DNA of 64,000 nucleotides from a virus, in IMG/VR virus record IMGVR_UViG_3300031718_000005, positions 4,280-68,279 of that record; one strand, given 5' to 3'. How positions within the stretch are numbered: position 1 is the stretch's first letter; every line of letters starts with the position of its first letter. Under the pieces are notes generated by a model that worked only from the letters and a program-made list of their open reading frames with translations, searched no databases and had not been told where the DNA came from. Below, piece by piece: positions 20,238 through 36,001 of this stretch. The position numbers were made by a program, and so were the translations under genes.

Positions 20238-20247
20238 GAGGTTTCCG

Positions 20248-22035
20248 ATGGCTACTCAACCTTACCCTGCTTATCAACAACGCTACATCGACCCCAACAA
20301 CCCGTTTGCCGATCCGGCGTTTGATCCGAATGCACCAGGAAACGCGCAGGGCGCTGCTCCAGATCCATCGGCTAATCCTATCTACGGCGCTCCGGGGGGA
20401 GCTTTGCCGACGCCCAATCCGGACCCGGAAGCCCCGATTCACAACATGTTCTATGACGATCAGGGGCGGCTGATCGCAGGGGCGAACCAGATCAACGCCG
20501 AAGCTCAGTCGCAGTTGGGATATTACGGCCCTCGCCAAGCGGCATATGGAGCCGCGACCGATACCGCACTCGCGAATCTCAACGCCACACCAGGGTTTAA
20601 CCAGGACGAAGCATCTAAGATCGGGATCGATTACGGCCAGTACCGAACCAGCGCCGATGACATGAACAAGCAGTTTCTCACGGGCGACGAACAATCAGCC
20701 ATCAAGGGTGATCCCAACGATCCACGCAACGTCATGAACGCAGGTACGGCTGCCGAAGGAGCGATGCTGAATCAGTATCAAGCCAACCAGGGAGCGCAGG
20801 TCGGCCAATTAGCGTCTAACGTCGGCGGGCAGATGAACCAGTATCAGTCTAACGTCGGCGATCAGATGGGCAAGTACGAATCCGGTGTCGGAACGGGTGT
20901 AAGCAACCTCGACACGATGTTGCAAGGCTCTCAGGACAAATTTGGGAAGCTGGATACGGCAGTGGGTAATCCGGGGTTAGCCTTCGATCCCAACGCCACC
21001 GAAAAGCAGATGACCGACGCCGATGTGCAGGCCATCAAGACGGCAGCGGGGGAACGAATCGGAAATCAATACCGCTCAGCGGAAGACACTTTGAATCGGC
21101 AAGCGGCGGCAGCTGGCAATACATCTCCCTTAGCCATTGAAGCGGCAAGAGCGCGGTTAGAGAACCAGTCCGCAGCGGGACAAGGAAGCGCGGAGTATCA
21201 AGCCGACATAGCCGCTCGACAAGCTCAGTATGACCGTGCTGCGGGAATTGAAGGACAGCGCGAGGGAGCGGTTAAAACTCAGGTTGGATTCCAAGCTGGC
21301 GCAGCGACTCAGGAACAAGCCCAAGCCCAGGCGGCAGCGGGATTAGCGGGAACATCGGGAATCGCGGCGGCAGAGAACGTAGGCCAAGCGGATCTTTCGG
21401 CTGCGGAGAATGTGGGGGCGGCGGGGGTATCGGCGGCTGAGAACGTGGGACAGGCGGGAATTAACGCCGCGAACACCTACGGGCAGTTCTCAACACAAAC
21501 GGCTTCTAATATGGCGAATCAGGGCTACGGTGCCGCGCAGACAGCAGAGCAGGAAGCGGCTGCCCGCGCCGCGATGCTCGGTGCAAATCGGCAGAACACC
21601 CAAGCGAACGTAAACAACGCGACCTACACCCAGGGCATGAATACAGGCCAAGCCACGTCCGCAGGTCAGCAAACGCTTGGCGGGGCGCGTATGCAAGGTC
21701 AGGCGGCTTACCGGTCAGGTCTGGCTCAACAAGAGGGCATGGCGCAACAAGGCGGTCAGAACGCCATGCAGCAACAAGGGCAGACTCTTCAGACCACGAC
21801 TTCAGGATTGAATCAGTCCACAGCGAACCGGGCTAACTACGAGAATACGGGGCCAGGGGGATTAGGCAAAGCTGGCAGTCAAATCTTCGGGGCGGGAATG
21901 AAGTTACTGGGAGCAGACGAAGGCGGCGTCTTCACCGAGCCGACCTTGGCGATTGTCGGAGAAAAACGCCCGGAAATGGTAGTCAAGGTTCCGCAACGCT
22001 ATGGGTACCGGAGTGACAACGGGAAGGCGGCCTAA
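20248..22035 (+). CDS. Gln/Ala/Asn-rich virion protein with tape-measure-like C-terminal motif
   Basis: 595 aa. AAENVG(Q/A)AG x3 tandem repeat. C-terminal motif TLAIVGEKRPEMVV. Confidence 0.6.
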   Translation: MATQPYPAYQQRYIDPNNPFADPAFDPNAPGNAQGAAPDPSANPIYGAPGGALPTPNPDPEAPIHNMFYDDQGRLIAGANQINAEAQSQLGYYGPRQAAYGAATDTALANLNATPGFNQDEASKIGIDYGQYRTSADDMNKQFLTGDEQSAIKGDPNDPRNVMNAGTAAEGAMLNQYQANQGAQVGQLASNVGGQMNQYQSNVGDQMGKYESGVGTGVSNLDTMLQGSQDKFGKLDTAVGNPGLAFDPNATEKQMTDADVQAIKTAAGERIGNQYRSAEDTLNRQAAAAGNTSPLAIEAARARLENQSAAGQGSAEYQADIAARQAQYDRAAGIEGQREGAVKTQVGFQAGAATQEQAQAQAAAGLAGTSGIAAAENVGQADLSAAENVGAAGVSAAENVGQAGINAANTYGQFSTQTASNMANQGYGAAQTAEQEAAARAAMLGANRQNTQANVNNATYTQGMNTGQATSAGQQTLGGARMQGQAAYRSGLAQQEGMAQQGGQNAMQQQGQTLQTTTSGLNQSTANRANYENTGPGGLGKAGSQIFGAGMKLLGADEGGVFTEPTLAIVGEKRPEMVVKVPQRYGYRSDNGKAA

Positions 22036-22037
22036 CG

Positions 22038-22517
22038 ATGGGCGGATTCTGGTCGAGTCTAGGGCAAGGTTTAGCGGACTACGGCAAGTCACGCTTGCAG
22101 AAGAGTCCGCTAGGCGGCCTGTATGACGCTTTCTCCGGCGGAGACCAAGGTTTCACCTCGGATCAAATGCCGATGGATACCCAAATGGCGACTGATCCTA
22201 CGGTGCGCTCTACCGCTCGTAATGCTGACCCCAACGCTGCGCTCTCGGATGCAATCTCTGGTGCCGAGCCGATGGCTGGAGGAAAACTTGTTACTTCACC
22301 AACGGTTGCGATGTTGGCAGAACATGGTCAGCCGGAGGCCGTCATTCCCCTCGATTCAATGCCAGGCCAGAAGATGTCCGCAAGCATGATGGGCGGTCTT
22401 CCGGGCGGATTACCTGTCCGCAGTAGGTACCGCAGGCCCAGCGGCGCAAACGCGGCAAAACTGCAAGCTCCGATTCGATCAGATATCCCGCTCGGCGCAA
22501 ATCGATTTTTCAGGTAG
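22038..22517 (+). CDS. virion protein with second copy of the VGE-PE motif
   Basis: 159 aa with the motif TVAMLAEHGQPEAVIPL. Confidence 0.55.
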   Translation: MGGFWSSLGQGLADYGKSRLQKSPLGGLYDAFSGGDQGFTSDQMPMDTQMATDPTVRSTARNADPNAALSDAISGAEPMAGGKLVTSPTVAMLAEHGQPEAVIPLDSMPGQKMSASMMGGLPGGLPVRSRYRRPSGANAAKLQAPIRSDIPLGANRFFR

Positions 22518-22520
22518 GCA

Positions 22521-24557
22521 ATGCCAACAATAGGCCTTCCAGCACGGTATCGTAGTCCTTACGGCACCCGTAGTGTGCTCACGCCGCCAGATAGCGCACC
22601 GCCGGGATTTAATCCTGACGATCCGAACGATGGCATGGATGGGCAGAACGTGGACTATACCGGATCTGCGATGCCGGGGCCTGCCGCAATTCCGCAATCG
22701 GCCACGAACGGCGCGGCACCAGGGACAAGCAACACCGTCTCGCTCGCATCCCCAGCACTGAATGGTAAACCGGAGAGCATGCGAAAGTTTCGACTTGCGA
22801 GTGCGGCTCCATCCATGCCACCGCCGGAAGCGATGGAACCGCCTCCACAGCCCACTGGGACTTCAACACCTGCACCTTCCCCCGCCGCCAACGCAACAAC
22901 ACCCATCAGCGCCGGTCCTGCACCAGAAACAGCATCCATCGGCATGATGGACAGGACTCCTGCGGGGATTACGCCACCTCCGAGCGGAGGGGTGGTTGCG
23001 CCCACTCCCCCTACCACCTCTGATGAACGACGGGCGGCGATTGACGCAGAACGACCTCAAGCATTTCACGATAACTGGGCGCAGCGATTCGGGCGAGCTA
23101 TTCTTTCACTCACCAAGTTTGCACCCGCAGCCAACATGCTCATGCACCCGAAGTGGTCTGAGCAGGAAGCAGCGTATCAGCGGGACATGGCGAACGAAGC
23201 GCAGCGGGAGCAGTTGGAACAAACTCAGGCTGGGACCGAGGCCCTTGGAGAACAGCGGGCGGCGCAGGCCGCTTATCGTACCGCCCAGGCCGAACAGCAA
23301 GGCGCACTCGCCGACACTCGTAAGCGAGGGCAAGAAGAGAAAACGTATAAGGACTTCGTTGATTCTCTCGGCAAGGGAGCGCAGCAGATCCCGGCAACAC
23401 AGGAAATTCCGGAAGGCTTCTACTCTGTGGCCGATCCGCGTAATCCGAGCACGCAGTGGGTTCTCCGCACACCGTTCGTTACGGTTCCAGATTCAATGCT
23501 CGATATGTTCCCTGGACAGAAGAGTGGTTTCAAGGCAACCGTCAACGAATTCGATCAAGCGCTGAAAGATAAACGCGATCAGATGAAGGAAGACCAGAAG
23601 GCTGGAAATAGGCCAGACAAAACGATGACGCCGCAGCAGCGGATGGCCGCTATTGCCGCAGGAGTTCCGGCTAATAAATCCATCGATGAATTGACGCAAC
23701 CTGAAGCGCAACGGTTAAATGCTGAGTTGGCAAAACAGGCCCAAGCCACTCACATCACGAACAATACCATCATCCCCGGAATGCCTCCAGCGCCAGGGCC
23801 AGGACAAATGACGGGCGGCGAGGACTATCTCAAGACCCTTCCGGTAGGAGTCGCCGCACAGGTCAAAGCTATCGCCGAAGGCCGTGCGGCACTTCCGTCA
23901 GGAGCTACGCGGAGTCAGGCAGCCCAACAACTCCGCAACGCCGTGTTCACCTACGATCCGCTGTACAGCGATCAACGAGCACAGATTCGCAAGTCTTTCG
24001 CGACTGGGCCAGATGGGAGAAATATCGGTTCTCTCAATACGGCTACCGTTCACTTGGATCAGTTGGGCGATGCGGCGGAAGCGTTAAAGAACGGCACGTT
24101 TACCCCAGGCAACGCCGCTTACAACTATTTCGCCAGTATGTTTGGCGGTGCCGCGCCGAGTAATTTCGAGTCTCTGAAATCGGCGGTCGCGGGAGAATTG
24201 GCAAACGCGCTGAAGGGTCAAGCGACCGATATTGAGATCCGCACAATTGGCAACAATATTATGTCGGCAAAATCGCCGGAGCAATTGGGTGGAGCGGTGG
24301 ACACGAACCTGCATATTCTCGGGGCGAAGCTGAAGACTTACCAAGAGCGCTATCAGCAGCAGATACCGAATGACCCGGCGTGGAGTCCAGTTCTTCCATC
24401 GGCGCGGCGAATTTATCAAAAACATGGATTCGATCCAACTGGTGAAACTGGCGGTGGGAAAGTTAGGATGCTACGCCCTGGCGGAGCAACTCCGGTAGAA
24501 GTCGATGCAAGTCAAGTGGAACATTACAAAAAGCTAGGCGCTAAGGTTGTTCAATAA
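22521..24557 (+). CDS. large virion-module protein
   Basis: 678 aa. Pro/Ala-rich N third and a helical Gln/Glu/Ala-rich body. Confidence 0.65.
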   Translation: MPTIGLPARYRSPYGTRSVLTPPDSAPPGFNPDDPNDGMDGQNVDYTGSAMPGPAAIPQSATNGAAPGTSNTVSLASPALNGKPESMRKFRLASAAPSMPPPEAMEPPPQPTGTSTPAPSPAANATTPISAGPAPETASIGMMDRTPAGITPPPSGGVVAPTPPTTSDERRAAIDAERPQAFHDNWAQRFGRAILSLTKFAPAANMLMHPKWSEQEAAYQRDMANEAQREQLEQTQAGTEALGEQRAAQAAYRTAQAEQQGALADTRKRGQEEKTYKDFVDSLGKGAQQIPATQEIPEGFYSVADPRNPSTQWVLRTPFVTVPDSMLDMFPGQKSGFKATVNEFDQALKDKRDQMKEDQKAGNRPDKTMTPQQRMAAIAAGVPANKSIDELTQPEAQRLNAELAKQAQATHITNNTIIPGMPPAPGPGQMTGGEDYLKTLPVGVAAQVKAIAEGRAALPSGATRSQAAQQLRNAVFTYDPLYSDQRAQIRKSFATGPDGRNIGSLNTATVHLDQLGDAAEALKNGTFTPGNAAYNYFASMFGGAAPSNFESLKSAVAGELANALKGQATDIEIRTIGNNIMSAKSPEQLGGAVDTNLHILGAKLKTYQERYQQQIPNDPAWSPVLPSARRIYQKHGFDPTGETGGGKVRMLRPGGATPVEVDASQVEHYKKLGAKVVQ

Positions 24558-26101
24558 TGCCTGACGATTCCGATTGGTTCAAGCAAAACGCTCCACTGAC
24601 GGCATCGCCACAAGTGCAATCTGACGCCGACTGGTTCAGACAAAATTCTCCTGCCGGGAACGTGAATCTCAATGCTCCTGGCGGATTTGGTCAGGGCATG
24701 ACGGACATACTAAATCCTGTTCCGGCTGTAAAGACGGTCGCGACGGCTATGTTCGGTGACCCTAAGGCGCAAGCAGAAGCAAAGGCCAATCTTCGCGACG
24801 CTACCATTGGCGCAACACAACGACAGGCACAGCTTACAAAAGAGGCGGCAAATGCGGGACGGTATAGCGAAGCTGTTGGGCACGGCCTTGCTACCGCTAT
24901 TCCGATAATCGGCCCAGCAGCAGCAGAAGCCGCTGAAACGATTGGCGGCGTAAGCGATATGCCACCGAGTCAGACGATGCCCAGCGAGGGACCACCTAGA
25001 GCACCGCAGGTAGCCCGTGGATTAGGGCAGGCAACCGCGCTTGTAACTCCCAGCGTGGCATCGTCGCTGGCGCGGGCCGTCAGGAATTCATCAATAGGCG
25101 CTGGTGCCGCTGGCATCCTGGAAGACTCCTCCTCTAAGAATTATGCTCGTGTACTTGGCGCAACGACGAATCAAAACAAAAACATCACCGCTAGAATAGC
25201 GCCAGAGTTGGCTGATCGTGGAGTGTGGGCGGCAACTCGCAAGGGGTTGCGTAATACAGCAGAACAGCAAATACAGTCCTTCGGGCAGCAGATTGGCGAT
25301 GCTTTCGACGCTCTCCACCCGGACACAAATCATCCATTGCAGCCGATTCTAGATTCCATTGATTCTGCGGCTAAAAACAGTTTTCAGATTCCCACCAGCA
25401 GGGGGCTAATGCCAAAAGGCCCAACCGCAGAAACCGGCTTATCCCACATTCAGGATCTAAAGAAAGCTCTGACTAATGTGTCCGAGGTGGACCCATCCAC
25501 GGGCGAAGCAGTAATTCCAGTAGATAGGCTAAGGGCAATGCGTCAGTACTTCGATGGCATCGCAGCCAAAGCTGGCCGGTATGGGGGAATTGACCTTGCG
25601 AACGAAAGTCTTGCGGAGGCGCACGGGATGGCCGCTGACGCGATTCGCGAGGAGTTAGCAGGCGCGTATCCAGACATCGCAAAAATAAACAAAGAATACT
25701 CGTTCTGGAAAAGTGTGCATGGAGTCGTGGATTCGACCATTAAACGTACACAATCACAGGCCACGCCACTTGGAGAACAACTTGCTACGGCTGCTGGTGC
25801 TGCTGCCAAAATCGGAGCACATGGAACTATTGGCGGTGCTGCGCTAACAGCCACGGGAGCTAAACTGCTCGTGAAGTTCGTCCGTAGTCCTGCATGGCAA
25901 ACCACGTCCGCTATCACCAAAAGCAGGCTTGCCGATCTTCTAGCTGCTGGAAATTCCGATGGAGTCGCAGAGCTAATTGGTCGTGCGACTGGAAGTCCTT
26001 GGACATACAGACTTCCTGAGACTACGGTTATGGCGGGTACGCCACAGAATCGGCAAACTACTTCTCGCGGCACTCCAGTAACGATGCCGCCACCTGAATA
26101 A
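24557..26101 (+). CDS. large virion-module protein
   Basis: 514 aa, ATAATG junction with the upstream gene. Duplicated N-terminal motif DSDWFKQNAP / DADWFRQNSP. Confidence 0.65.
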   Translation: MPDDSDWFKQNAPLTASPQVQSDADWFRQNSPAGNVNLNAPGGFGQGMTDILNPVPAVKTVATAMFGDPKAQAEAKANLRDATIGATQRQAQLTKEAANAGRYSEAVGHGLATAIPIIGPAAAEAAETIGGVSDMPPSQTMPSEGPPRAPQVARGLGQATALVTPSVASSLARAVRNSSIGAGAAGILEDSSSKNYARVLGATTNQNKNITARIAPELADRGVWAATRKGLRNTAEQQIQSFGQQIGDAFDALHPDTNHPLQPILDSIDSAAKNSFQIPTSRGLMPKGPTAETGLSHIQDLKKALTNVSEVDPSTGEAVIPVDRLRAMRQYFDGIAAKAGRYGGIDLANESLAEAHGMAADAIREELAGAYPDIAKINKEYSFWKSVHGVVDSTIKRTQSQATPLGEQLATAAGAAAKIGAHGTIGGAALTATGAKLLVKFVRSPAWQTTSAITKSRLADLLAAGNSDGVAELIGRATGSPWTYRLPETTVMAGTPQNRQTTSRGTPVTMPPPE

Positions 26102-26102
26102 T

Positions 26103-27239
26103 ATGGCATCAATCAAGCGCGGAAAATGGGAAAGAGCTGCGGCGAAGAGAGCCGCCGCCGATCCCGCCGCTATTCCGCCCTCACCACCGCCCGATCAACA
26201 AATCGCGATGGTCAAGAGCGGCATCGACATAAACCGTGGCAACGCGAACCAAATTCCTTTATCGGACGTAGGACACTCGGAAGCCCAGCAACGTGCCGAT
26301 CAGTTCGCAGCTAAAGGCGGAGTAGATCAAGTTGTCATCCCAACTAGTGAACGGGCCAAGGAATCAGCGGCACCGATTATCGCGGCGAATCCCCAAGCCC
26401 AGGTAAAGAGCGATCCAAATCTCGAAGCGCATGCCCAAGGCAACCTGGAAGGCCAGCCCATGGACATGGTGAAGGGCCAACTGAGGGATCTGATGAAGAA
26501 CAATCCCCAGCGGATCATTCCCGGCCAAGGTGCGCTGTCGTCACGCAAAGGTGAATCCTTCGACCAAGCTAGATTGCGGATTCTCCCGGCGATCCGGGGA
26601 GTCATGCAGCAACTCGCGGAGGGAATGCAGAAGAATCCAGACCACAAGATCGTAGTACCAATTCACTCCTCGGTCATCAAGCTAACGAAGGCGTGGCTAG
26701 CCAACGGAGCGCCTGACGATTTTTCGGTGAACCCGTCCGTGATGGACAAGGAAACGTCGGAGACTCCTGGTGGGGTAGACCATCTCTTCCCGAACAAGAG
26801 GGGTGAGTGGGAAACGAACGAAGTCAACATGCGCGATCCGCAACAACTGGGAGCGGGCATCTATCTTCTCCGCCACGCTCCGACGCCGATTAATAAAGAG
26901 ACTTACGAGCAAGGCGCAGCCCAGCAACAAGCCTTAGCGCAGATGCACAAACACATTCAGTCGGGCGATTTCAGACGAGCCAAGAGCTTTGCTGAACAAG
27001 CTTCCAAAGCCGGAATGAGCGATCAGGACATTGAGAAGTACGTGGATAACGCCATTCCAGACCGCGACACCGTTTCGCAGTATCCCATGCCTCGGTTACT
27101 TGCAACCATCGCCGCCGCAGGGCCGCAGAAGAAACAAGAACTCGCCCCGCTGTTACAAAGCCACTTTGGAAACATCGACCAATTACCGGAGGACGTGCGT
27201 GGTCCGTTCGCCGAGCACCTAGCCCAGATCGCTTCCTGA
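26103..27239 (+). CDS. virion-module protein with degenerate histidine-phosphatase (PGAM)-like domain
   Basis: 378 aa. The order of PLSDVGHSEAQ, VVIPTSERAKESA, NLEG, KGESFDQARLR and VVPIHSSVIK mimics the PGAM fold. KSG replaces the RHG motif. Confidence 0.4.
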   Translation: MASIKRGKWERAAAKRAAADPAAIPPSPPPDQQIAMVKSGIDINRGNANQIPLSDVGHSEAQQRADQFAAKGGVDQVVIPTSERAKESAAPIIAANPQAQVKSDPNLEAHAQGNLEGQPMDMVKGQLRDLMKNNPQRIIPGQGALSSRKGESFDQARLRILPAIRGVMQQLAEGMQKNPDHKIVVPIHSSVIKLTKAWLANGAPDDFSVNPSVMDKETSETPGGVDHLFPNKRGEWETNEVNMRDPQQLGAGIYLLRHAPTPINKETYEQGAAQQQALAQMHKHIQSGDFRRAKSFAEQASKAGMSDQDIEKYVDNAIPDRDTVSQYPMPRLLATIAAAGPQKKQELAPLLQSHFGNIDQLPEDVRGPFAEHLAQIAS

Positions 27240-27250
27240 AGGAGAATTTC

Positions 27251-27805
27251 ATGAGACTAATACTTTCGCTGTTGTTTACCATGGTGCTCTACGCCCAAGG
27301 GCCGGAGGTGTCTATCTCCCAACTTCCGCCCCTAAATCCAGGGCAACTGATTTACGGTTATTCGGGCACGAACCTGATTTACACCTGCTACGCACATTCG
27401 GGGTCTTCCACTCCTTCCGGGCCAAACGCGATCTCCGGTGTATCGAAGGCGAACCCGGCTATCGTGACTTCATCGGGGCATGGATTCAACGTCAACTCCC
27501 GGCCCAAGGTTACGATCTCCGGGGCCACGGGAACGGGATGGACGGCGATAAACGCGACTTGGACCGCGACGATTCTCGATGCCAACACGTTCTCGATTCC
27601 GATTGACTCCACTGGATTCGGGACGCTTGCGGGAACAGTAATTTTCACGACTACGGCTCCGCAGACCAATCAGCCGGTATGGGCCGTCAAGCTCTATACT
27701 TATGATGGTTCTAATAATTTAATTTTCTCGGCGTGGCTCAACGGATCGTTGAGCTTTACCTCGAAGTGTTCCGATGCCACGTCGTCAACGTTGAACGCAC
27801 AGTAA
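27251..27805 (+). CDS. beta-module protein with Sec-like N-terminus
   Basis: 184 aa. Starts MRLILSLLFTMVLYAQGP. Module: AIVTSSGHGFNVNSRPKVTISGATGTGWTAINATWTATILDANTFSI. Confidence 0.65.
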   Translation: MRLILSLLFTMVLYAQGPEVSISQLPPLNPGQLIYGYSGTNLIYTCYAHSGSSTPSGPNAISGVSKANPAIVTSSGHGFNVNSRPKVTISGATGTGWTAINATWTATILDANTFSIPIDSTGFGTLAGTVIFTTTAPQTNQPVWAVKLYTYDGSNNLIFSAWLNGSLSFTSKCSDATSSTLNAQ

Positions 27806-27860
27806 TCCTTCAGATCACCCTTGCTATCATTCCAACGTTCAAAGTAGAAAGGTAAATTCA

Positions 27861-28460
27861 ATGAAACTTGTAGGCTCACTCCTGCTAGCAACGGCGCTTC
27901 TGTTCGGACAAGCTGTTGACAAAGTTGACGCGTCTGGTCGAGCGTCGGCGTCCGTAGGGCGTAATCGGAAGATCACCGAAGGGACGCGGCGTTCCAACGT
28001 TGTGCATGTCTTGGCTCGACACCCCAAGCCTGGCTGCGCTGATACCGCCGTATGCGGGACGATCTTCTACGAGACTACCACCCATAACCTCGTCACCAAC
28101 GCCGGGCTGAACTGGCTCGCCGATATCATGGCGAACACGTCAACGCCAGCGGTGAATACCCAGTGCAACTTCATTGCTCTGACAAACACCGCGATCACTC
28201 CCGGTGCGACCGATACCACGCTTTCTGGTGAAATTGTTGCCAACGGCCTGAGCCGCGCTCAGGGGACGTACACGCACAGCTCGAACGCGACCACGTTCAC
28301 CATCGCCAAGACGTTCACGGCCACTGGTGCTCAGTCGGCCCAAGCTGGCGCTGTCTTTACGGCGTCAAGCGCTGGCACCATGTGCTATGAGGACACGTTC
28401 ACCAGCGCTACGCTCGCGACTAACGACACACTCAGCGTAACTTGGACAATTACTATATAG
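27861..28460 (+). CDS. fibre-region protein with Sec-like N-terminus
   Basis: 199 aa. Starts MKLVGSLLLATALLFGQA. The C-domain pattern resembles that of 30308..30754. Confidence 0.65.
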   Translation: MKLVGSLLLATALLFGQAVDKVDASGRASASVGRNRKITEGTRRSNVVHVLARHPKPGCADTAVCGTIFYETTTHNLVTNAGLNWLADIMANTSTPAVNTQCNFIALTNTAITPGATDTTLSGEIVANGLSRAQGTYTHSSNATTFTIAKTFTATGAQSAQAGAVFTASSAGTMCYEDTFTSATLATNDTLSVTWTITI

Positions 28461-28475
28461 CTGATAACAAAGGAC

Positions 28476-30059
28476 TTGCTTATTTTAAGGTATGTACTAA
28501 TCATTGCCCTACCGGGAATTGTTTGTGCGAGCAAATGGATTCCGTCAAAAGCCGCCTCGGATCTGACGACAGTGCAAACCTGTAATGCAGTCAGTACACA
28601 GAACACCTTCGCTCCGCAGAAACTTGAGAACTCAACGGCCACGACAGGCTCCTGGGCATTCTCGCAGGTCAAGAGCAGCACACAGAACTTTGAGCTTTAC
28701 ACGAACGCGAACTTTCCCAACAACACGTCTTGGGCATCTGGAACATGGACCATTCAAATCGACGTGACCATAGCAGCGTCGGCCAATATGACCTGGGAGG
28801 ACACCTGTGTTATCCGGGTGAACTCATCGGGCGTGGCGCAAACGACTGAAGGCTCAACGACGGCGCAGGCGATTAGTCTCAACACGACCGGAACCAAGAG
28901 CATGAACGTCACGCAATCGGCGACCGACAGCAGCGCATCGGCTACAGACCGTATCGTGATCGTGATGAACTTCAAGAACGCCTCATCAACGACTACGCGG
29001 ACGTTCACATTGGACGCTGGGGTTGTTGCCAACGAATTTGTAACGGCTCCTACAGTGGCTAAATTGACTGGTACGGCAACAGACGGCACGCTCTCAGAAA
29101 GTATGGCCCGCGTTCATGGATGGGTTCGCACCGATTCAGATACAGCATTGTCAGCAGAGTCTCCTGCGCGAGTTTTTGGCGCGGTGCGGTCTGACTCCGA
29201 TACGACCTTATCCGCTGAATCCGATGCGCGTGTGTTTGGGGCCGTCCGTTCTGGTTCTGACGGGACGCTATCGGAAACTGCGGCTCGATCTGCAATTGCT
29301 TTCGCCCGAACTGGTTCGGATGCCGGCGTATTAACAGAAACGGCTTCGCGAGCAAGTATTGCCTTCACGCGCACAGATGCGGATTCGGCGTTCTCATCTG
29401 AAACTGGAGCACGATCCGCGATTGCATTTAATCGCAGTGGTGCAGACGCGGCACTCTCGTCCGAATCGGCATTGCGGGGCACGATTGCCTTTCTGCGTTC
29501 TAGTTCTGACGGCACCGTGGTGGAATCCATGGTACGGCAACCGCTTGCATTTATACGCATCGGAGCGGACGGTAGCGTTACCGAGACAGTAGCCAGACAG
29601 CGGAATGTGCCGATCACAATATCGGATGGAACGCTCTCGGCGTCGGTTGGACGAACAGCGGCCTCGTTCCGCACCGCATCCGATGGCACGCTTTCCGAAT
29701 CAGTCAATCGCGGTTCGCTCGTATTGGCGCGTACTACGTCAGACGGATCGCTTTCCGAAACGCTCGCCACTAACAGCGCATATGTGCGGACTGTTGTTGC
29801 GGATGGAAGCACAACGGAGTCAGTCGTTCGGCTGGCGGCATCGCTACGCAATCTATCCGATGGATCGTTGGCTGAATCCATAATATCGAATGGGGCCTTT
29901 TCTCGGGCTATGTTCGATGGAAGTTTGGGAGAGTCGCTTGCGACGGTTTCGTCGGGCGGTCATTCGTCCATTTATAAAACGCTGTGTCCTGAGTTGCACA
30001 TCACTCCAGCAGTTTGGAAAGCGAATATTGGTCTATGGCCGCTCTGTTCGATCAAATAG
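28476..30059 (+). CDS. repeat-rich fibre-like protein with hydrophobic N-terminus
   Basis: 527 aa with a TTG start. About 15 tandem repeats of 19-20 aa of the type SDGTLSES..R......R. Confidence 0.6.
   Translation: MLILRYVLIIALPGIVCASKWIPSKAASDLTTVQTCNAVSTQNTFAPQKLENSTATTGSWAFSQVKSSTQNFELYTNANFPNNTSWASGTWTIQIDVTIAASANMTWEDTCVIRVNSSGVAQTTEGSTTAQAISLNTTGTKSMNVTQSATDSSASATDRIVIVMNFKNASSTTTRTFTLDAGVVANEFVTAPTVAKLTGTATDGTLSESMARVHGWVRTDSDTALSAESPARVFGAVRSDSDTTLSAESDARVFGAVRSGSDGTLSETAARSAIAFARTGSDAGVLTETASRASIAFTRTDADSAFSSETGARSAIAFNRSGADAALSSESALRGTIAFLRSSSDGTVVESMVRQPLAFIRIGADGSVTETVARQRNVPITISDGTLSASVGRTAASFRTASDGTLSESVNRGSLVLARTTSDGSLSETLATNSAYVRTVVADGSTTESVVRLAASLRNLSDGSLAESIISNGAFSRAMFDGSLGESLATVSSGGHSSIYKTLCPELHITPAVWKANIGLWPLCSIK
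29067..29960 (+). repeat. tandem coding repeats of about 57-60 bp
   Basis: Protein periodicity (S/A)D(G/S/T)(T/A)LS(A/E)(E/S)xxR is seen from about aa 198 to 495. The antisense frame stays open as a by-product. Confidence 0.7.
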
Positions 30060-30292
30060 TCGGTGAAGTAGTTCCCTACGAGCAAGACGTGGAAGGGGAC
30101 ACGATTGCCTCGGTTGCGTGGTCCGTTTCCCCCACCGGCCCAACCGTCACTCCACTGGCAAATACCGGAACATCGGCGACAGCTAACTTCACTAGCTCGG
30201 TAGTCGGAACGTTCGTTTTGCAATGCGTTCTAACACTAACCACCAACGGCCAAATCCGCAAGGGCCGCGCAACAATCTCAGTAGATCCCTAA
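30035..30292 (+). CDS. small Ig-like protein
   Basis: Starts at an internal ATG of ORF 30014..30292. Beta-rich sequence TIASVAWSVSPTGPTVTPL...FVLQCVLTLTTNG. Confidence 0.5.
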   Translation: MAALFDQIVGEVVPYEQDVEGDTIASVAWSVSPTGPTVTPLANTGTSATANFTSSVVGTFVLQCVLTLTTNGQIRKGRATISVDP

Positions 30293-30307
30293 AGGAGACA
30301 TAAAACT

Positions 30308-30754
30308 ATGGGGCCGGGTCCATGGACGCTATACAACGATGCCAAGCTGAACTTCTTCAAGAAGCTCATGGATCTTGGCGGAGACACATTTAAGGTCGCG
30401 CTCGTTACGTCATCCTCTAATGGACTCGTCGCGACGTTAACGCCGGGAACCTATGGCACCTTGACCGGCGAACTTACAACAGCCAACGGGTACACGGCGG
30501 GCGGGGCTACGGCTGGATCACCCACGTTAACAGGTGGTGGCGCGACAGCCACTATCACATGGAACACCAATGACGTGTCATGGACTGCCTCTGGGGCCGG
30601 GTTTACGGCGCGTGGGGCGGTGATGTATGATTCGACGGCGGGAGATTTGATTGCCTTCTTCCTGCTCGACTCCACGCCCGCCGATGTGACGATAGCGGCT
30701 GGAAATACATTGACCATCTCCATCGCCAGCCCGAAGGTATTCACCGCGACTTAA
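30308..30754 (+). CDS. fibre-region protein
   Basis: 148 aa with GGAGA RBS. Pattern FKVALVTS...GYTAGG...WTASGAGFTARGAVMYD is shared with 27861..28460. Confidence 0.65.
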   Translation: MGPGPWTLYNDAKLNFFKKLMDLGGDTFKVALVTSSSNGLVATLTPGTYGTLTGELTTANGYTAGGATAGSPTLTGGGATATITWNTNDVSWTASGAGFTARGAVMYDSTAGDLIAFFLLDSTPADVTIAAGNTLTISIASPKVFTAT

Positions 30755-30758
30755 TAAA

Positions 30759-32261
30759 ATGGCATTCGCCACCTCACGCTCGCTCACTATCGACCACACC
30801 AAGGTATCGGGATCGGATCAGTCCAATTTCCCGGTCTTGGTGAAGATCGTCAACGGTTCGTTCGCCACGGTAGCAAACAGCGGACTGATTCAGCACACAG
30901 TAACTCAATCCGGGGGCAACCCAATCACCATGCCCGCTGATCTTATCTTTACCTCGGATTCGGGCGGGGCAACAAAGATACCGTGGGAATTTGAATCATA
31001 CGACGGGACGACTGGAACACTTTACGCCTGGGTGTTGATCGCCACCGTCTCACACACAGTAGATACTGTCTTCTATGTTTTCTACGGGGATGCGACGGTT
31101 TCGACTCAGCAAAACACCGGTAGCTTCTCTGTGGCTAACGTCTGGGACGCGAACTTCAAGGGAGTCTACCATTTCCCCGATGGCACGACGCTGAACGCGA
31201 AAGATTCTACCGGCAACGCCAACAACGGGACTCTTACTGGTTCGAGTTTGGCTACAGCCGGGAAAGTCGATGGATGTTTCGACGTTCATCCTAATCCTGA
31301 CTACGCATCGGTCGGAACCCTGGGACTGACTACTACCTTTACCTTCAGTTTGTGGATCAAACCGGCAGATTTGAGATTTGGTGGATTGATCGCCCAGCAA
31401 GCACATGGTGGGGTAGAGTTCCGAACCAACAACGACAACACTCTTAGCCTACTTAGTGCTCAAGTATCCAATCTAGCCACTTCGAGCGGGACGGTGACTA
31501 CTGGGGCTTTCCATTATGTCGTGCTCACCTACGATGGGTCCACCGCCAAATTCTACATTGATGGGGCGGCATCTGGAAGTACGAGCGTTTCGTTCACGTT
31601 CGGATCGGGTATATACGATATCGGTCGCAGTGGAGGGGCGGGAGACTTTTTTTCCGGTCCTCTTGATGAAGCGCGGATATCGAGTACAATCCGATCCGCC
31701 GACTGGATCACCACTGAGTTCAACAATCAGAACTCACCCAACACGTTCATCACACTGGGCGGGGCATTAACCACACTCGCTCCAAGTGCCGCGTCGTTTA
31801 CGTTTACCGACCTGACGCCCGCGCTGACGCGGAAACTCCAGCCCGCTTCAGCGTCCCTCACATTCACTGGCGCAACCCCGAGCGAAAGACAAACGCTTCA
31901 CCCTGCTGCTGGTAGTCTTACATTTACAGGCGAAACTCCAGTAACCGGCGGTGTTCTACGGCCATCTGCGGCAACATTGGCTTTCGCTGGACGAACCCCA
32001 ACACTGAAGACCGGGCTACGGCCAAACGCCGCAAGTTTCGTCTTGACGGGCGATGGTCCGCACTTACGGTTAACGCTTCACCCTACTCCCGCAGTGATTA
32101 TGTTCCATGGCTTGATGCCATCGCTTACGGGAGCTTCCTTTGCCAATGCGCGAAGATTTACACCGATAGACGCCGATCCCCGAGCATTGGCTGCGGTCGA
32201 TGCCGTGAACCGTAAACTCAAACCGCTGAATTCCTCACCACGTTCTATGGAGAAAGTATGA
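30759..32261 (+). CDS. LamG/concanavalin-like (DUF2341-type) fibre protein
   Basis: 500 aa. FYIDGAASGS and DEARISSTIRSADWITTEFNNQNSP are typical of Laminin_G_3/DUF2341 proteins. The C-terminus has about six 20-aa repeats. Confidence 0.75.
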   Translation: MAFATSRSLTIDHTKVSGSDQSNFPVLVKIVNGSFATVANSGLIQHTVTQSGGNPITMPADLIFTSDSGGATKIPWEFESYDGTTGTLYAWVLIATVSHTVDTVFYVFYGDATVSTQQNTGSFSVANVWDANFKGVYHFPDGTTLNAKDSTGNANNGTLTGSSLATAGKVDGCFDVHPNPDYASVGTLGLTTTFTFSLWIKPADLRFGGLIAQQAHGGVEFRTNNDNTLSLLSAQVSNLATSSGTVTTGAFHYVVLTYDGSTAKFYIDGAASGSTSVSFTFGSGIYDIGRSGGAGDFFSGPLDEARISSTIRSADWITTEFNNQNSPNTFITLGGALTTLAPSAASFTFTDLTPALTRKLQPASASLTFTGATPSERQTLHPAAGSLTFTGETPVTGGVLRPSAATLAFAGRTPTLKTGLRPNAASFVLTGDGPHLRLTLHPTPAVIMFHGLMPSLTGASFANARRFTPIDADPRALAAVDAVNRKLKPLNSSPRSMEKV

Positions 32262-33973
32262 AAATAATTGCCCTGCTTCTTTTAGTGTTCGCACCGCTGA
32301 TGGCCCAATATGTCCCTACTCCAAATCCAGGGGACCCGATCAAGATCGCTGCTGGTGGTGGCGGCGGCTCCGGAACGGTAACTAGCGTAACCATCAATGG
32401 CACCGCGAGCCAAATTACGGCCACTGGCACCTGCACTGGCACGACGACGATCACTTGCACGCTGTCCCTGCCTAGCGCACTGGTGCTTCCTGGCACGATT
32501 GACGGCCTGACGATCACCACCACAACAGGCACTCTGACTATCGCTGCGGCTAAGGTGTTCACAGTTAACAACACGGTCACGATAACGGGAACGGACGGCA
32601 GCACGCTTAACATCGGCGCGGGCGGAACGCTTGGATCGAATGCGTTCAACAGTACCGCGTTCGTGCCGACGACCACGACCGTGGCGGGCCATGCTTTGAG
32701 CAGTAACGTCTCCATCGCCTGTGCGGATTTGACCAACGCATCTGCTGCATGTAGCAGTTTGAATAATTTATCGCTAACCGGAACACCAACCGCTCCTACC
32801 CCAGCGGCAACCGACAACAGCACTACGATCCCCACCACTGCTTATGTCACCACGGCTATCACGAATGCGGTAAATGCTGCTGCTGGACGCGATCTAGTGC
32901 AGGCAGCTACGGCGGCGGTGTTGCCCAACACTCCGACGTTCACGCATGTCGATGCAGGCGTCGGTTCGTTCTTTACCTCAAGCACTAATTCCGTGTTGGT
33001 AGTAGACGGCTACACGCCTCTACTGCTGGACAGGATTCTGGTGAAGAACCAGGCGACGGCGGCGAACAATGGCATCTATTCGGTCACTCAGCTTGGCGTG
33101 GCTGCTGTGACACCGTGGATCTTGACGCGCACGCTCGATTACGATCAACCTTCGGATATGAACAACACGATTGTTCCGGTAGCGAACAATGGAACCACTA
33201 ATCCTAAGAGTTCCTGGATCATGACTTCGGTTGTGGCGACCGTCGATACTGATGCGGTTAATTTTGCGCCCTTCACTCCAAACGGGGCCAATATTGTTAC
33301 TGCATCGTCACCAGGAGTCGGGCTGTGCCATTTCGCCGGGGGCACGCAGGCGTGTACTAGTTCGGCAGTGGTTAATGCCGACATCGCTAATTCTACTATT
33401 GATCTGACTACTAAAGTAACCGGAGTACTGCCATTAGCCAATGGAGGTGGAATCACGCTTACCTCTTATCCAGTAGGGGTAAATATAAGTGCTGGCATTC
33501 ATGCACCAACTAGCAATGCAACTATCGCATGGTCGTTTGATATTTTATCACCTGTATCATTCTCCAAGATACTTCTGGTAATACACGGTGCAGACACGAA
33601 CGCCGGATCGTTTAATTGTCCAAATTTATCTGGTGTTAACCAAACCTCCGTGCAGTGCTATGATTGGGGAATTGCCGACTCTTCCGGTGTACTAAAGGCG
33701 GATGTCGGACCTCACCAAGTAAATTCTCCGACCGTTGCCGACTTATCAATAGCACAAGGAACCGTGACTATTTCTCCAGGTAGGTATTTCTTTATCATCA
33801 CAGGCACAGCAGCTTCAGCAGACTTGTACTTCACTGGCCCCAGCCTATATTTCTCCGGGGCGTGCGGAATAAATGAGAGCCAAGCTACATCTGGAGGGCA
33901 ATTAGTGTCATTCACTCCGGCATCTCTGTCGTGGGGACAATGCGATTGGCCACTGATACAGTTACACCAATAG
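32258..33973 (+). CDS. tail fibre protein with Sec-like N-terminus
   Basis: 571 aa. Starts MKIIALLLLVFAPLMAQ. Contains the fibre motif LTGTPTAPTPAATDNSTTIPTTAYV. ATGA overlap with the upstream gene. Confidence 0.7.
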   Translation: MKIIALLLLVFAPLMAQYVPTPNPGDPIKIAAGGGGGSGTVTSVTINGTASQITATGTCTGTTTITCTLSLPSALVLPGTIDGLTITTTTGTLTIAAAKVFTVNNTVTITGTDGSTLNIGAGGTLGSNAFNSTAFVPTTTTVAGHALSSNVSIACADLTNASAACSSLNNLSLTGTPTAPTPAATDNSTTIPTTAYVTTAITNAVNAAAGRDLVQAATAAVLPNTPTFTHVDAGVGSFFTSSTNSVLVVDGYTPLLLDRILVKNQATAANNGIYSVTQLGVAAVTPWILTRTLDYDQPSDMNNTIVPVANNGTTNPKSSWIMTSVVATVDTDAVNFAPFTPNGANIVTASSPGVGLCHFAGGTQACTSSAVVNADIANSTIDLTTKVTGVLPLANGGGITLTSYPVGVNISAGIHAPTSNATIAWSFDILSPVSFSKILLVIHGADTNAGSFNCPNLSGVNQTSVQCYDWGIADSSGVLKADVGPHQVNSPTVADLSIAQGTVTISPGRYFFIITGTAASADLYFTGPSLYFSGACGINESQATSGGQLVSFTPASLSWGQCDWPLIQLHQ

Positions 33974-34006
33974 GAACGTCAGATCAGGTAACACCTAACT
34001 TTTAGT

Positions 34007-34402
34007 ATGTCACACTGCAATAATATTTCAGGATTAGGATTATACCCGGTGGAGAGGACGGCTTCCATCAACACCTCGAATTCCCTCGCCCGGCGGCAGG
34101 CGGTGTTGCCACAAAAGAGGATACGTAGTCGTTGTTTGGCTTGCCGCCGGATGCTAGACAATACATATCGAAAGAAGACGAGGAAGCACTGTAGCACGAG
34201 ATGTCGCTGGATTTACAATAAGCGAATGTCTCGATTCCGTAAAACCGGACGGTTGGCGGGCATAGTCCGCTGCGAAAATATGGACTGCGGGAAATTGTTC
34301 AGACAAAAGAGAATTAGCCACCGCTACTGTTGTGACTTTTGCCGCTGGCGAGACTATTTCGTTATTAGCTCCGATTACCATCCAAGAAAGAAGGCGGCGT
34401 GA
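34007..34402 (+). CDS. basic protein with two CxxC...CxxxC zinc-ribbon units
   Basis: 131 aa, Arg/Lys-rich. Contains CLAC...CSTRC and CENMDC...CCDFC. Preceded by a locally AT-rich leader. Confidence 0.55.
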   Translation: MSHCNNISGLGLYPVERTASINTSNSLARRQAVLPQKRIRSRCLACRRMLDNTYRKKTRKHCSTRCRWIYNKRMSRFRKTGRLAGIVRCENMDCGKLFRQKRISHRYCCDFCRWRDYFVISSDYHPRKKAA

Positions 34403-35010
34403 GGCTTTTGTTAGCGATTCTTCTACTTGCGAATTCAGTCCGCGCTGAATCCTTTTGGAGTCGCATTGCGAACTTCTTCGCGCCCAACGCGCCACTTACG
34501 ATCACTACTACGGCTTTACCAATCGGCCAAACCGGAACGGCTTACAGTACCACGTTAACAGCCTCGGGCGGCAAGACACCTTACCGCTGGTCGATCCAGC
34601 CTTTAGCCACATTGCAGGCCGCAAACCTTACTCTTTCAGGTGCTACGCTATCGGGCGCATCTTCAGTCGTGGTCAACGGGACAGCGCTCAATATATACGT
34701 GTTGGACAAGACCGGGAGGCAAGCTTTTGTGTCACTGCCTCTCGCGATTTGCGCTCCATTCTTGGTGGCTAATGCCTCGCCACTCCCGCAAGGATCGCTT
34801 GGACAGCCTTACAAAGTTCAATTCATCACGTCCGGCGGGTTCAAAGCTCCTGGATTGACATGGAGCGTTTCAGGTACGCTTCCAACTGGTTTGACGCTAG
34901 ATTCCGCCACTGGAATCTTGAGCGGAGTTCCGACTACCGCAGGATCTTTCAGCATTACCGCAACCGCGAGCGATGGAGCGGCAAGCAATCCTCCGTCCTG
35001 TAACCCCTGA
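34399..35010 (+). CDS. secreted-type protein with two putative Ig (He_PIG-like) domains
   Basis: 203 aa. Starts MRLLLAILLLANSVRAE. Contains LPIGQTGTAYSTTLTASGGKTPYRWS and GTLPTGLTLDSATGILSGVPTTAGSFSITATASD. Confidence 0.65.
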   Translation: MRLLLAILLLANSVRAESFWSRIANFFAPNAPLTITTTALPIGQTGTAYSTTLTASGGKTPYRWSIQPLATLQAANLTLSGATLSGASSVVVNGTALNIYVLDKTGRQAFVSLPLAICAPFLVANASPLPQGSLGQPYKVQFITSGGFKAPGLTWSVSGTLPTGLTLDSATGILSGVPTTAGSFSITATASDGAASNPPSCNP

Positions 35011-35023
35011 TTTATAAGCGCAT

Positions 35024-35386
35024 ATGCGTAACCAAATGAAATCTCTTGTAGTTTCGTTCTTGTTTCTCAGTCAAGCCATCGGGCAGACCGCCCACGTCGC
35101 CACCTTGCAGTGGACCGACTCCATCAATCCACCGGGAACGCTCTACAACGTGTACCGAGTCGTTGGTACTTGCCCGCCCGCAACGCCAAGTCCGCCAATA
35201 AATGCAGTGTTCACTCGCATAGCCAGTATGCTTGGTGCTCTGACTTATCAAGATAAGACGATCACCACGGGGACTTTTTGTTTTGCCGTGAGCGCAATTT
35301 CAAATGGCGGCGAGAGCGGTCTATCAAACGTGGTGCAAGTAACCGTGATATCTGCTCCTACTGGTTTGACGGTGGTGATTCAGTGA
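35024..35386 (+). CDS. FN3-like protein with Sec-like N-terminus
   Basis: 120 aa. Starts MRNQMKSLVVSFLFLSQAIGQ. Contains ATLQWTDS...YNVYR.... Confidence 0.65.
   Translation: MRNQMKSLVVSFLFLSQAIGQTAHVATLQWTDSINPPGTLYNVYRVVGTCPPATPSPPINAVFTRIASMLGALTYQDKTITTGTFCFAVSAISNGGESGLSNVVQVTVISAPTGLTVVIQ
35306..35386 (+). repeat. 81-bp gene-end segment, copy 1
   Basis: Encodes GGESGLSNVVQVTVISAPTGLTVVIQ plus stop. Paralogous to 35854-35934. Confidence 0.8.
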
Positions 35387-35934
35387 AAAGATGTCCTGGT
35401 TGTAAAGAAACCAAACAAGCAGCAGACTTCCACAAGGGTAGAGACAATAAGGATGGACTGCAAACACGGTGTAAATTGTGCAAGGCTTCGGCGCGTAAGA
35501 AGTTTAGAGAGCAGTATCCCGAAAGAGTTAAAGCTCGGGAGAGTAGGGCATATGCGCGGTTGGTGGCTGAAGGAAAGGCCAACACACACTACCTGAGGCA
35601 CTTCGAGAGGTATCGCGACGAGTGGCTCACGAGGCGCTATGGAATAACCTACGCCGATTACCAGAGAATGTTAGAACTTCAGAAGGGTCTATGTGCGATC
35701 TGCAATAGGTCCGCAAAACTGGACGTTGACCACAACCACGAAACAGGCCGAGTCCGTGGGCTGCTTTGTAGAAAGTGTAATCTAGGGATAGGTTATCTTA
35801 AGGATGACCACGGGCTGTTGCTGAAGGCATACCGGTATCTAGTTGCATTCGACGGCGGCGAGAGCGCTCAGTCCAACACGGCGCAAGCAGTTCTGATTTC
35901 GCCGCCAACGGGACTTACGGTGGTGGTACAATGA
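35383..35934 (+). CDS. endonuclease VII-family homing-type nuclease fused to a duplicated FN3 tail
   Basis: Motif CAICNRSAKLDVDHNHETGRVRGLLCRKCNLGIGYLKDD. The GTG at 35383 overlaps the FN3 stop (GTGA). The last 26 aa repeat the upstream gene's C-terminus. Confidence 0.8.
   Translation: MKRCPGCKETKQAADFHKGRDNKDGLQTRCKLCKASARKKFREQYPERVKARESRAYARLVAEGKANTHYLRHFERYRDEWLTRRYGITYADYQRMLELQKGLCAICNRSAKLDVDHNHETGRVRGLLCRKCNLGIGYLKDDHGLLLKAYRYLVAFDGGESAQSNTAQAVLISPPTGLTVVVQ
35854..35934 (+). repeat. 81-bp gene-end segment, copy 2
   Basis: Encodes GGESAQSNTAQAVLISPPTGLTVVVQ plus stop. Same length as copy 1, with 16 of 26 aa identical. Confidence 0.8.
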
Positions 35935-36001
35935 ACACTACTGTCACGGCGCTCGCCGGGGCACCCACATTTTGGAACGGTTCTCTCGCTAGAGCCGGGG
36001 G

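Follow-up and report, generated by a model that had tools for sequence, protein, structure and literature searches.

Six proteins encoded between positions 27251 and 35386 of the window, in the fibre region of a phage represented by the IMG/VR record IMGVR_UViG_3300031718_000005, begin with N-termini that are very probably real Sec-dependent signal peptides of the signal peptidase I (SPI) type. Judged from sequence, their export is well supported. The window is the whole stretch of DNA analysed, 64 kb of a 67.8 kb metagenomic contig (Logan assembly of SRR8558719) with a GC content of 54.8%. At least one of the six is a true tail-fibre protein. In the reading favoured here, to which about an even chance is given, the fibres are exported, matured in the periplasm and joined to the phage particles at lysis; their incorporation into virions after export is what we infer. 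The initial annotation of this DNA had regarded exported fibres as unexpected, and full-text literature searching found no precedent for Sec signals on tail fibres or tailspikes.

Predicted signal peptides of the six proteins

The six open reading frames (ORFs) start at 27251, 27861, 28476, 32258, 34399 and 35024, with N-termini exactly as first quoted, and encode proteins of 184, 199, 527, 571, 203 and 120 amino acids (aa), respectively. Their genes share the strand of the terminase and structural genes; they follow the presumed internal virion proteins, and a Gp77-like adaptor gene is interleaved with them. Signals were called with a rule set that requires Lys or Arg in the N-terminal region (n-region), no acidic residue ahead of the core, a core that is uncharged, strongly hydrophobic on the Kyte-Doolittle scale and 9 or more residues long, and a nearby cleavage site with small residues at -3 and -1. 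The background counts were taken from a greedy gene set of the whole window. Six of the approximately 10 genes in 27251-35386 pass the rule set, versus two of about 86 elsewhere, both doubtful (Fisher p = 5.9e-6). Among overlapping, presumably non-coding ORFs the count is 5 of 330.

All six proteins have a Lys or Arg at position 2-6, followed by an uncharged hydrophobic core of 9-17 residues with a mean Kyte-Doolittle value of 2.0-3.4. The small-residue sites, with predicted cleavage marked by a slash, are LYA/Q, LFG/Q, VCA/S, LMA/Q, VRA/E and, in the last protein, AIG/Q or LS/Q. Gln is thus found at +1 after the predicted cleavage in four of the six. A twin-arginine motif (RR) is absent from all six N-termini, as is a credible lipobox; the sole nearby Cys, in the 527-aa protein (GIVC/AS), fits poorly and is not kept in homologues. 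A Pfam search detected no muralytic domain in the six proteins, and Pfam and NCBIfam revealed no outer-membrane or surface sorting domain, either of the type IX secretion system C-terminal domain (T9SS CTD) or of the PEP-CTERM kind; the C-termini lack a PEP motif followed by a membrane span. The NCBIfam search of the six added nothing further.

Wrong start codons, or chance hydrophobic stretches in ORFs called from their first start, could in principle mimic such N-termini. One TTG and one GTG start, a 527-aa ORF left uncalled by the source pipeline and a 120-aa gene with no Shine-Dalgarno sequence are in line with an artefact of this type. However, the enrichment in the region is strong, and a Shine-Dalgarno-like purine run precedes the other five genes. 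Two of the six starts overlap the preceding stop codon, the usual arrangement of coupled genes, and coding potential backs the frames. Moreover, homologues on hundreds of independent contigs begin alike, and the signal is kept in all four families that were compared with metagenomic homologues (those of the 184-, 199-, 527- and 571-aa proteins). The homologue data exclude an artefact, which is hardly credible for this set. The Sec-type signals proposed in the initial annotation are therefore borne out by the rule set, by the enrichment and by the homologues.

Conservation in the 184-aa family

The 184-aa protein (27251-27805, + strand) has a predicted signal at residues 1-15 (27251-27295) with cleavage at LYA/QG. 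Its 120 homologues, mostly full-length, are 45-66% identical to it; 106-112 of them carry a signal, and Ala, Gly or Ser followed by Gln stands near the expected cleavage site in 109. A Lys or Arg occurs within the first 8 residues of all 93 family members scored (93/93), Ala occupies -1 in 76%, and Gln occupies +1 (Q16) in 99%. The hydrophobic region (h-region), with a median of 13 residues and a range of 10-20, is the least conserved part of the alignment, and its top-residue frequency is 0.37, against 0.67 in the mature domain. Because the core drifts while the basic residue and the +1 Gln stay, the N-terminus reads as a signal peptide and not as a docking helix. Two cysteines, C46 and C173, are 99% conserved or invariant in the full-length homologues, and the mature part has an even number of Cys in 101 of 101 homologues. 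At the other end of the protein, the last residue is Gln in 118 of the 120 homologues (P0122-P0241), an invariant column of the alignment, so that the mature protein would have Gln at both ends.

These data bear on the suggestion, also present in the initial annotation, that the hydrophobic helix is an assembly element. In that account nothing is exported: the N-termini would be trimerisation or anchoring helices, or transient inner-membrane tethers, acting in the cytoplasm and perhaps removed by a phage protease, and their resemblance to signals would be due to chance. It agrees with the cytoplasmic assembly of all studied tailed phages, and some of the 199-aa homologues do have longer, anchor-like hydrophobic N-termini. 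In addition, predictors are known to call signal peptides on some capsid-protein N-termini (PMC10367356). A docking helix should nevertheless be conserved, whereas here it is the h-region that varies and the flanking basic residue and Gln that are held constant. Furthermore, h-regions of 9-17 residues are too short for a membrane span, and the same architecture is found on unrelated proteins of unrelated phages.

Cysteines and probable extracytoplasmic folding

The cysteine content points in the same direction. The six mature proteins contain, in gene order, 2, 4, 4, 10, 2 and 2 Cys, all even numbers, and the ten Cys of the 571-aa fibre fall into five close pairs. The three signal-less neighbours (the adaptor, a 148-aa and a 500-aa protein) have 0-1 Cys. 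The contrast set is formed by six consecutive large proteins of the virion module, encoded immediately upstream on the + strand (19566-27239; 223, 595, 159, 678, 514 and 378 aa), which are signal-less and have no Cys at all in 2,547 residues. These are presumed to be internal, tail or ejection proteins assembled in the cytoplasm, and the N-termini of several of them are rich in Pro, Gly and Gln. The last one (26103-27239, 378 aa) contains a histidine-phosphatase region (His_Phos_1), which is unusual within a structural module.

The same relation is observed among the homologues of the 571-aa fibre. An even Cys count is found in 73 of the 81 signal-bearing homologues (p = 1.5e-14), and the Cys density is 1.66 per 100 aa in those with a signal versus 0.70 per 100 aa in those without, where parity is mixed. 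Signals together with even, conserved cysteines constitute strong indirect evidence that the signal-bearing proteins fold in an oxidising compartment. The confinement of such cysteines to the signal-bearing proteins, taken with the pattern of conservation and with the 99% conservation of the +1 Gln, makes the non-signal assembly helix improbable.

The 571-aa tail fibre and the other signal-bearing proteins

The claim that at least one of the proteins is a genuine tail fibre stands for the 571-aa protein (32258-33973, + strand), whose start overlaps the upstream stop (ATGA) and whose predicted signal spans residues 1-16 (32258-32305; LMA/QY). The signal is followed by a short Pro-rich linker, a poly-Gly/SGTVTSV module, a conserved central domain (approximately residues 170-380) and a variable C-terminal domain; this mosaic architecture is visible in the alignment of homologues. 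Six PHROG families annotated as tail fibre protein match the central part (best E = 6e-8), and the tail-fibre motif LTGTPTAPTPAATDNSTTIPTTAYV lies inside the matching stretch. In eight of the nine cultured-phage records hit by tblastn (Pelagibacter, Synechococcus, Methylophilales and Bacillus phages), the matching gene bears a tail-fibre annotation. Of the 120 homologues, approximately 84 begin with a signal, and at least 62 of these show a +1 Gln. The central domain also occurs in GTDB genomes as distant matches (30-45% identity) spread over many phyla, nearly all of them without a signal. The other five signal-bearing proteins gave no sequence match to a tail-fibre family.

The 199-aa protein (27861-28460, + strand) is a member of phrog_5417 with a predicted signal at residues 1-16 (27861-27908; LFG/QA). 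A signal is present in 70 of 120 homologues, and those nearest to the window protein have it in the A/Q form. Another group bears instead a longer N-terminal segment of the membrane-anchor type, and the protein of Chlorobiaceae phage CV-1-33 shows neither feature. On a 777 kb bacterial contig, a prophage has the homologous gene between its portal and Gp77 adaptor genes. The AlphaFold2 (AF2) model has a predicted local distance difference test score (pLDDT) of 83, and its best PDB matches, although weak, are all tail, baseplate or connector parts of virions: the HFTV1 tail, the Bas63 connector, A511 gp105, the phi812 baseplate arm and the GP4 fibre/adaptor. The AF2 model of the 184-aa protein (pLDDT 91) is a beta-sandwich with an E1-FCCH-like beta-barrel.

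Homologues of the 199-aa protein with 51-57% identity and a hydrophobic N-terminus are also encoded in thaumarchaeal chromosomes. In Candidatus Nitrososphaera evergladensis SR1 (L054; CP007174.1, 1185766-1206332) the gene stands two genes from a weak match to Gp80 of podophage GP4, with giant PKD/HemolysinCabind proteins nearby. This module may be virus-derived and either domesticated or resident in the archaeon.

The 527-aa protein (28476-30059, + strand) starts with TTG and has a predicted signal at residues 1-18 (28476-28529). The signal is followed by a conserved AASDLTxxQTCN motif and by a long, degenerate region rich in Ser, Asp and Thr, with repeats of about 17 residues (of the type SDGTLSES..AR) that escape detection by Tandem Repeats Finder in the DNA. 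The source gene caller skipped this ORF and selected the antisense ORFs 28754-29089 and 29114-29881, but codon usage favours the + strand over them. The nearest homologues have a signal ahead of the same motif, and distant ones begin at the domain itself. This ORF is the least secure of the six and makes the weakest case.

The 203-aa protein (34399-35010, + strand) is Ig-like (He_PIG). Its GTG start overlaps the upstream stop, and its predicted signal covers residues 1-16 (34399-34446; VRA/ES). The last of the six, the 120-aa protein (35024-35386, + strand), has a predicted signal at residues 1-16 or 1-20 (35024-35083), cleaved at LS/Q or AIG/Q, and contains Cys 50 and Cys 86. Pfam and PHROG searches gave no family match for it; from its sequence it looks like a beta-sandwich of the FN3/Ig type.

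Signal-bearing fibre genes in other phages

The relatives of the window phage are contigs of 68-72 kb with a GC content of 57.5-59% (L047, L049/L050 and L051/L052). In these, three or four large signal-less proteins precede the 184-aa gene, often with a 4-nucleotide overlap, and three to five large signal-bearing proteins come after it. Each of the four related genomes examined, L047, L049 and L051 among them, has the 184-aa gene itself at the same position. The comparison with the fibre genes of related phages that had been recommended at the outset thus reveals signal-bearing runs at the same place. The mature N-termini that follow the Gln are alike across different fibres, as illustrated by QYVPTPNPGDPIK in the window and QFVPTPNPGDPIR in the 1,012-aa protein of L047, and a QCxxxxNPxTxxxDC loop is found at the mature N-termini of several other fibres. 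Such conservation is as expected for modular segments of virion attachment (docking).

The trait is also found in phages with other gene content and gene order. L003 encodes five consecutive signal-bearing proteins of 468-1,075 aa and, three genes past this run, an M15 endolysin with an adjoining lipobox protein that is a candidate spanin. L004 has two signal-bearing proteins.

A cultured example is provided by the Tunturi phages, which were reached through a tblastn match of the 203-aa protein; the best-covering cultured-phage match of this protein is gp245 of the Tunturiibacter (Acidobacteriota) phage Tunturi_5. The Tunturi phages are the first isolates on Acidobacteriota, and the host of Tunturi 1 is Tunturiibacter psychrotolerans (PMC11924767). 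Tunturi 1 (PP887698; locus L057, 10371-23028) is a podovirus of 63 kb and 55% GC. Between its tail protein and its lysis cassette it encodes five adjacent signal-bearing proteins, in which a Lys or Arg is followed by a hydrophobic core and A/Q: gp12 (1,190 aa; AAASAQ followed by T), gp13 (675 aa; AGFAQ followed by T), gp14 (919 aa, annotated as tail spike), gp16 (149 aa; LANAQ followed by W; 2 Cys) and gp17 (1,184 aa; LAGAQ followed by T; annotated as virion structural protein). Each of the four large proteins contains 10-32 Cys, and Pfam places a right-handed beta-helix and a CHB_HEX_C domain in gp17. The Tunturi publication nowhere mentions signal peptides (PMC11924767).

Tunturi 1 resembles the window phage in genome size and GC content, in the position of the fibre run and in the A/Q signals. 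No sequence similarity was detectable between the proteins of Tunturi 1 and those of the window; the signal trait therefore recurs in unrelated phages. Runs of 2-6 adjacent signal-bearing fibre or tailspike genes end the structural module in the relatives, in unrelated metagenomic phages and in Tunturi 1. Past the core structural genes of L003, L051 and Tunturi 1, most of the large genes of fibre or tailspike type encode a signal, and in two of these phages, L003 and Tunturi 1, the lysis cassette lies at or near the end of the run.

On the other hand, signals are absent from the tail proteins of Tunturi 3 (podovirus), Tunturi 4 (siphovirus) and Tunturi 5 (jumbo myovirus), as well as from those of Bacteroides phage B40-8 and Cellulophaga phage phi38:1. 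The idea that signals are a general trait of phages infecting Acidobacteriota, or hosts that follow the Q-rule described below, was rejected on account of these five phages.

Host and Q-rule

The Q-rule denotes the presence of Gln at +1 of Sec/SPI substrates, where it is cyclised to pyroglutamate; it has been described as exclusive to Bacteroidetes, in which roughly 71% of the exported proteins have a +1 Gln (PMC5837995, PMC10653852). The pyroglutamate N-terminus stabilises Q-rule proteins (PMC10653852). The frequencies found here match or exceed the Bacteroidetes figure: a +1 Gln is present in four of the six proteins, in 99% of the 184-aa family and in the majority of the remaining homologues. 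In contrast with the Bacteroidetes case, the GC content here is 54-60%, the cultured example grows on Acidobacteriota, and the tail proteins of B40-8 and phi38:1 are signal-less. The data suggest that the Q-rule extends beyond Bacteroidota, to Acidobacteriota.

A diderm soil bacterium, a member of the Acidobacteriota, is the most likely host of the window phage. This phylum is made likelier by the A/Q signals shared with Tunturi 1 and by the GC content of every signal-fibre contig, which is 54-60%, as in the Tunturi phages. A diderm envelope is indicated by the endolysins: a close relative encodes one with GH108 and PG_binding_3 domains, and L003 has its M15 endolysin and candidate lipobox spanin. 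A thaumarchaeal host was considered in view of the 199-aa homologues in Nitrososphaera, and was rejected on the basis of the relative's peptidoglycan-binding GH108 endolysin and of the M15 endolysin and candidate spanin of L003. Host assignment through prophages in GTDB genomes yielded only the distant matches to the central fibre domain, in many phyla, and the relatives of the large terminase carried no information on the host. No paper mentioning the SRA run was found.

Proposed export, maturation and assembly

In the favoured reading, the six proteins would be late products, made alongside the other structural proteins; Sec would export them, and cleavage would fall right before the conserved Gln, which may then cyclise to pyroglutamate. 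Folding, with formation of disulfide bonds, would take place in the periplasm. There the proteins would remain, as is suggested by the absence of an outer-membrane sorting signal. Once lysis breaches the inner membrane, they would dock on fibre-less particles assembled in the cytoplasm, probably through signal-less adaptors such as the Gp77-like protein. Late attachment of this type has parallels, since P22 tailspikes and T4 fibres attach spontaneously in vitro to finished particles, and in a short-tailed virion the fibres are not required to initiate tail assembly.

Canonical tail fibres are signal-less, fold in the cytoplasm and have few cysteines. The fibres of the window resemble canonical fibres and tailspikes, such as those of T7 (gp17), P22 (gp9) and T4 (long fibres), in position and in their mosaic build, with a variable distal portion joined to a conserved one for attachment, and they have homology to annotated tail fibres. 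They differ from the canonical proteins in the signal peptide, in the predicted site of folding and in the cysteine content. The Sec pathway is used by several other phage proteins, namely filamentous coat proteins, secreted and signal-anchor-release (SAR) endolysins, o-spanins and exclusion lipoproteins such as T5 Llp and Cor. Filamentous phages, however, are tailless and assembled at the membrane, whereas the endolysins, o-spanins and Llp/Cor are small lysis or exclusion factors or lipoproteins, and none is a structural protein of the fibre class. Sec signals on fibre-class proteins would therefore combine two known things, tail fibres and Sec-exported phage proteins, in a manner of which no published description was found.

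The proteins could also be exported without ever becoming part of the virion, as fibre derivatives, soluble in the periplasm or secreted, whose target is the envelope of the infected cell. They might destroy or mask receptors, leading to superinfection exclusion or to a smaller loss of progeny on debris, or serve as pre-lysis polysaccharide depolymerases or decoys, with the 184-aa protein possibly as a chaperone of other exported proteins. The signal and disulfide evidence is the same for this account as for virion incorporation, and the window also encodes a signal-less fibre set. Enzyme-like domains do occur in homologues (the beta-helix and CHB_HEX_C of Tunturi 1 gp17; K1-lyase_C and NHL in L003), and the 199-aa homologues include membrane-anchored proteins and members encoded in an archaeal chromosome. 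The closest published case has been read in this way: the Porphyromonas gingivalis prophages (Nixviridae) contain five Sec/SPI Q-rule genes, described as striking and of function not known, which were taken to be modifiers of the host surface (PMC10367356). By description, those proteins and the present ones have in common that they are phage-encoded, with a Sec/SPI signal and the Q-rule. They differ in that the window proteins are of the tail-fibre class, stand in runs in the structural module and have conserved disulfide cysteines.

Nevertheless, several features are difficult to reconcile with a non-virion role. The signal-bearing proteins reach 1,349 aa and take up roughly 10-15% of the genome, far above known exclusion factors. 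L003, L051 and Tunturi 1 would be left with few or no candidates for receptor binding. The 184-aa gene is syntenic inside the structural operon, unlike sporadic accessory genes, and conserved mature N-terminal modules with variable C-terminal domains are the signature of virion-attached fibres. The cell surface would also be out of reach, as no outer-membrane sorting signal was seen. A virion role is thus favoured by the fibre class and the fibre position, by the synteny of the 184-aa gene in four genomes, by the conserved N-terminal modules with variable distal domains, and by the scarcity, in several phages, of large signal-less fibre-like genes downstream of the core structural genes. The non-virion account is accordingly regarded as unlikely, though with a real share of the probability.

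Assembly on the particle after export has its own difficulties. All tailed phages studied so far are, to our knowledge, assembled in the cytoplasm. In many other phages, among them phages of Bacteroidota and other phages of Acidobacteriota, the same fibre domains function without a signal, so export is unnecessary for their folding. The signal-less set of the window (adaptor, 148-aa protein and 500-aa LamG protein) could by itself be the whole receptor-binding apparatus, and Pfam and PHROG searches identified no lysis genes at 35.4-39.7 kb of the window, only an HNH gene. The fold matches of the 184- and 199-aa models are weak, with template modelling (TM) scores of 0.37-0.44; the resemblance of the 184-aa fold to domains of phage tail fibre and baseplate proteins is at a TM of about 0.4. 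Signal calls throughout derive from a hand-made rule set and from comparative evidence. Finally, the nearest published case, that of the P. gingivalis phages, is the one read as secreted host modifiers (PMC10367356). The initial annotation had placed secreted non-virion proteins and fibre maturation involving the envelope side by side; the two are not separated by the present data, but synteny, position, homology and the other phages lean to fibre maturation through the envelope.

The window phage and neighbouring genes

The large terminase (115-2604) matches phrog_38 (E = 2e-81) and is followed by almost 40 kb of genes on one strand, which identifies a tailed phage. The terminase has 829 aa, of which residues 41-538 are spanned by the family match, and the approximately 290 C-terminal residues have none. 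Most structural proteins of the window lack family matches, and no tRNA genes were found in it. A short-tailed virion is suggested by a weak match to Gp77, the fibre-tail adaptor of podophage GP4, in the product of 30014-30292 (+ strand; Pfam PF23148, E = 1.5e-5, just under the gathering score; no signal). The record of the source contig also carries a Gp77 family match. The window phage is therefore probably a tailed phage of roughly 68 kb with a short tail. Scans of IMG/VR with the 184-aa protein and with a 459-aa structural protein (17923-19302) retrieved no close relatives, and tblastn against cultured phages gave no match for a 707-aa structural protein (14984-17107), for the 184-aa protein or for the Bacteroidota-looking homologue P0059.

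Two further signal-less genes lie between the adaptor and the 571-aa fibre. The first one (30308-30754, + strand) encodes the 148-aa minor-tail-like protein (phrog_644, E = 4e-21), which has no Cys and is about 42% identical to proteins in 218 mycobacteriophage records, mostly annotated as hypothetical and in a few cases as minor tail protein. The second (30759-32261, + strand) encodes the 500-aa fibre-like protein with LamG/DUF2341 features (Laminin_G_3, E = 6.5e-21) and one Cys. Downstream of the 571-aa fibre, a 131-aa zinc-ribbon-like protein (34007-34402, + strand; phrog_2308) has 10 Cys in pairs and no signal. Its codon usage is atypical, with a score of -0.17 compared with +0.07 to +0.2 in the neighbours, and the gene probably represents another mobile insertion among the fibre genes and does not belong to the fibre set.

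The other insertion follows the 120-aa gene. An endonuclease VII/HNH gene (35386-35934, + strand; Pfam E = 1.6e-21; PHROG endonuclease VII) is flanked by an 82-nucleotide direct repeat of 71% identity (35306-35387 and 35854-35935). Through this repeat, the last 26 codons of the 120-aa gene recur as the in-frame 3' end of the HNH gene (PTGLTVVIQ and PTGLTVVVQ, each followed by the stop). The HNH gene looks like a homing-endonuclease insertion whose target has been duplicated and has diverged.

Implications

If fibres are indeed exported before they join the particle, this would be an exception to the textbook view that a tailed phage finishes its virions in the cytoplasm, and a new morphogenetic route in Caudoviricetes. 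With somewhat less than an even chance, a group of soil phages, among them the cultured podovirus Tunturi 1, may build a virion in two compartments, with heads and tails made in the cytoplasm, and with fibres, spikes and accessory proteins that are exported by Sec, blocked by pyroglutamate and disulfide-bonded before they attach at lysis. The possible benefits of export are stabilisation by disulfides and a pyroglutamate N-terminus resistant to aminopeptidases. These phages would then borrow the extracytoplasmic protein-hardening machinery of the host, and Sec, signal peptidase, Dsb and glutaminyl cyclase would be host factors and possible determinants of resistance. Pipelines that count a signal peptide against a virion role would misclassify receptor-binding proteins, and the A/Q cleavage signature could serve in host prediction. 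With Tunturi 1 and its host in culture, the reading is directly testable. Disulfide-bonded and N-terminally blocked fibres could account for the robustness of the particles in soil.

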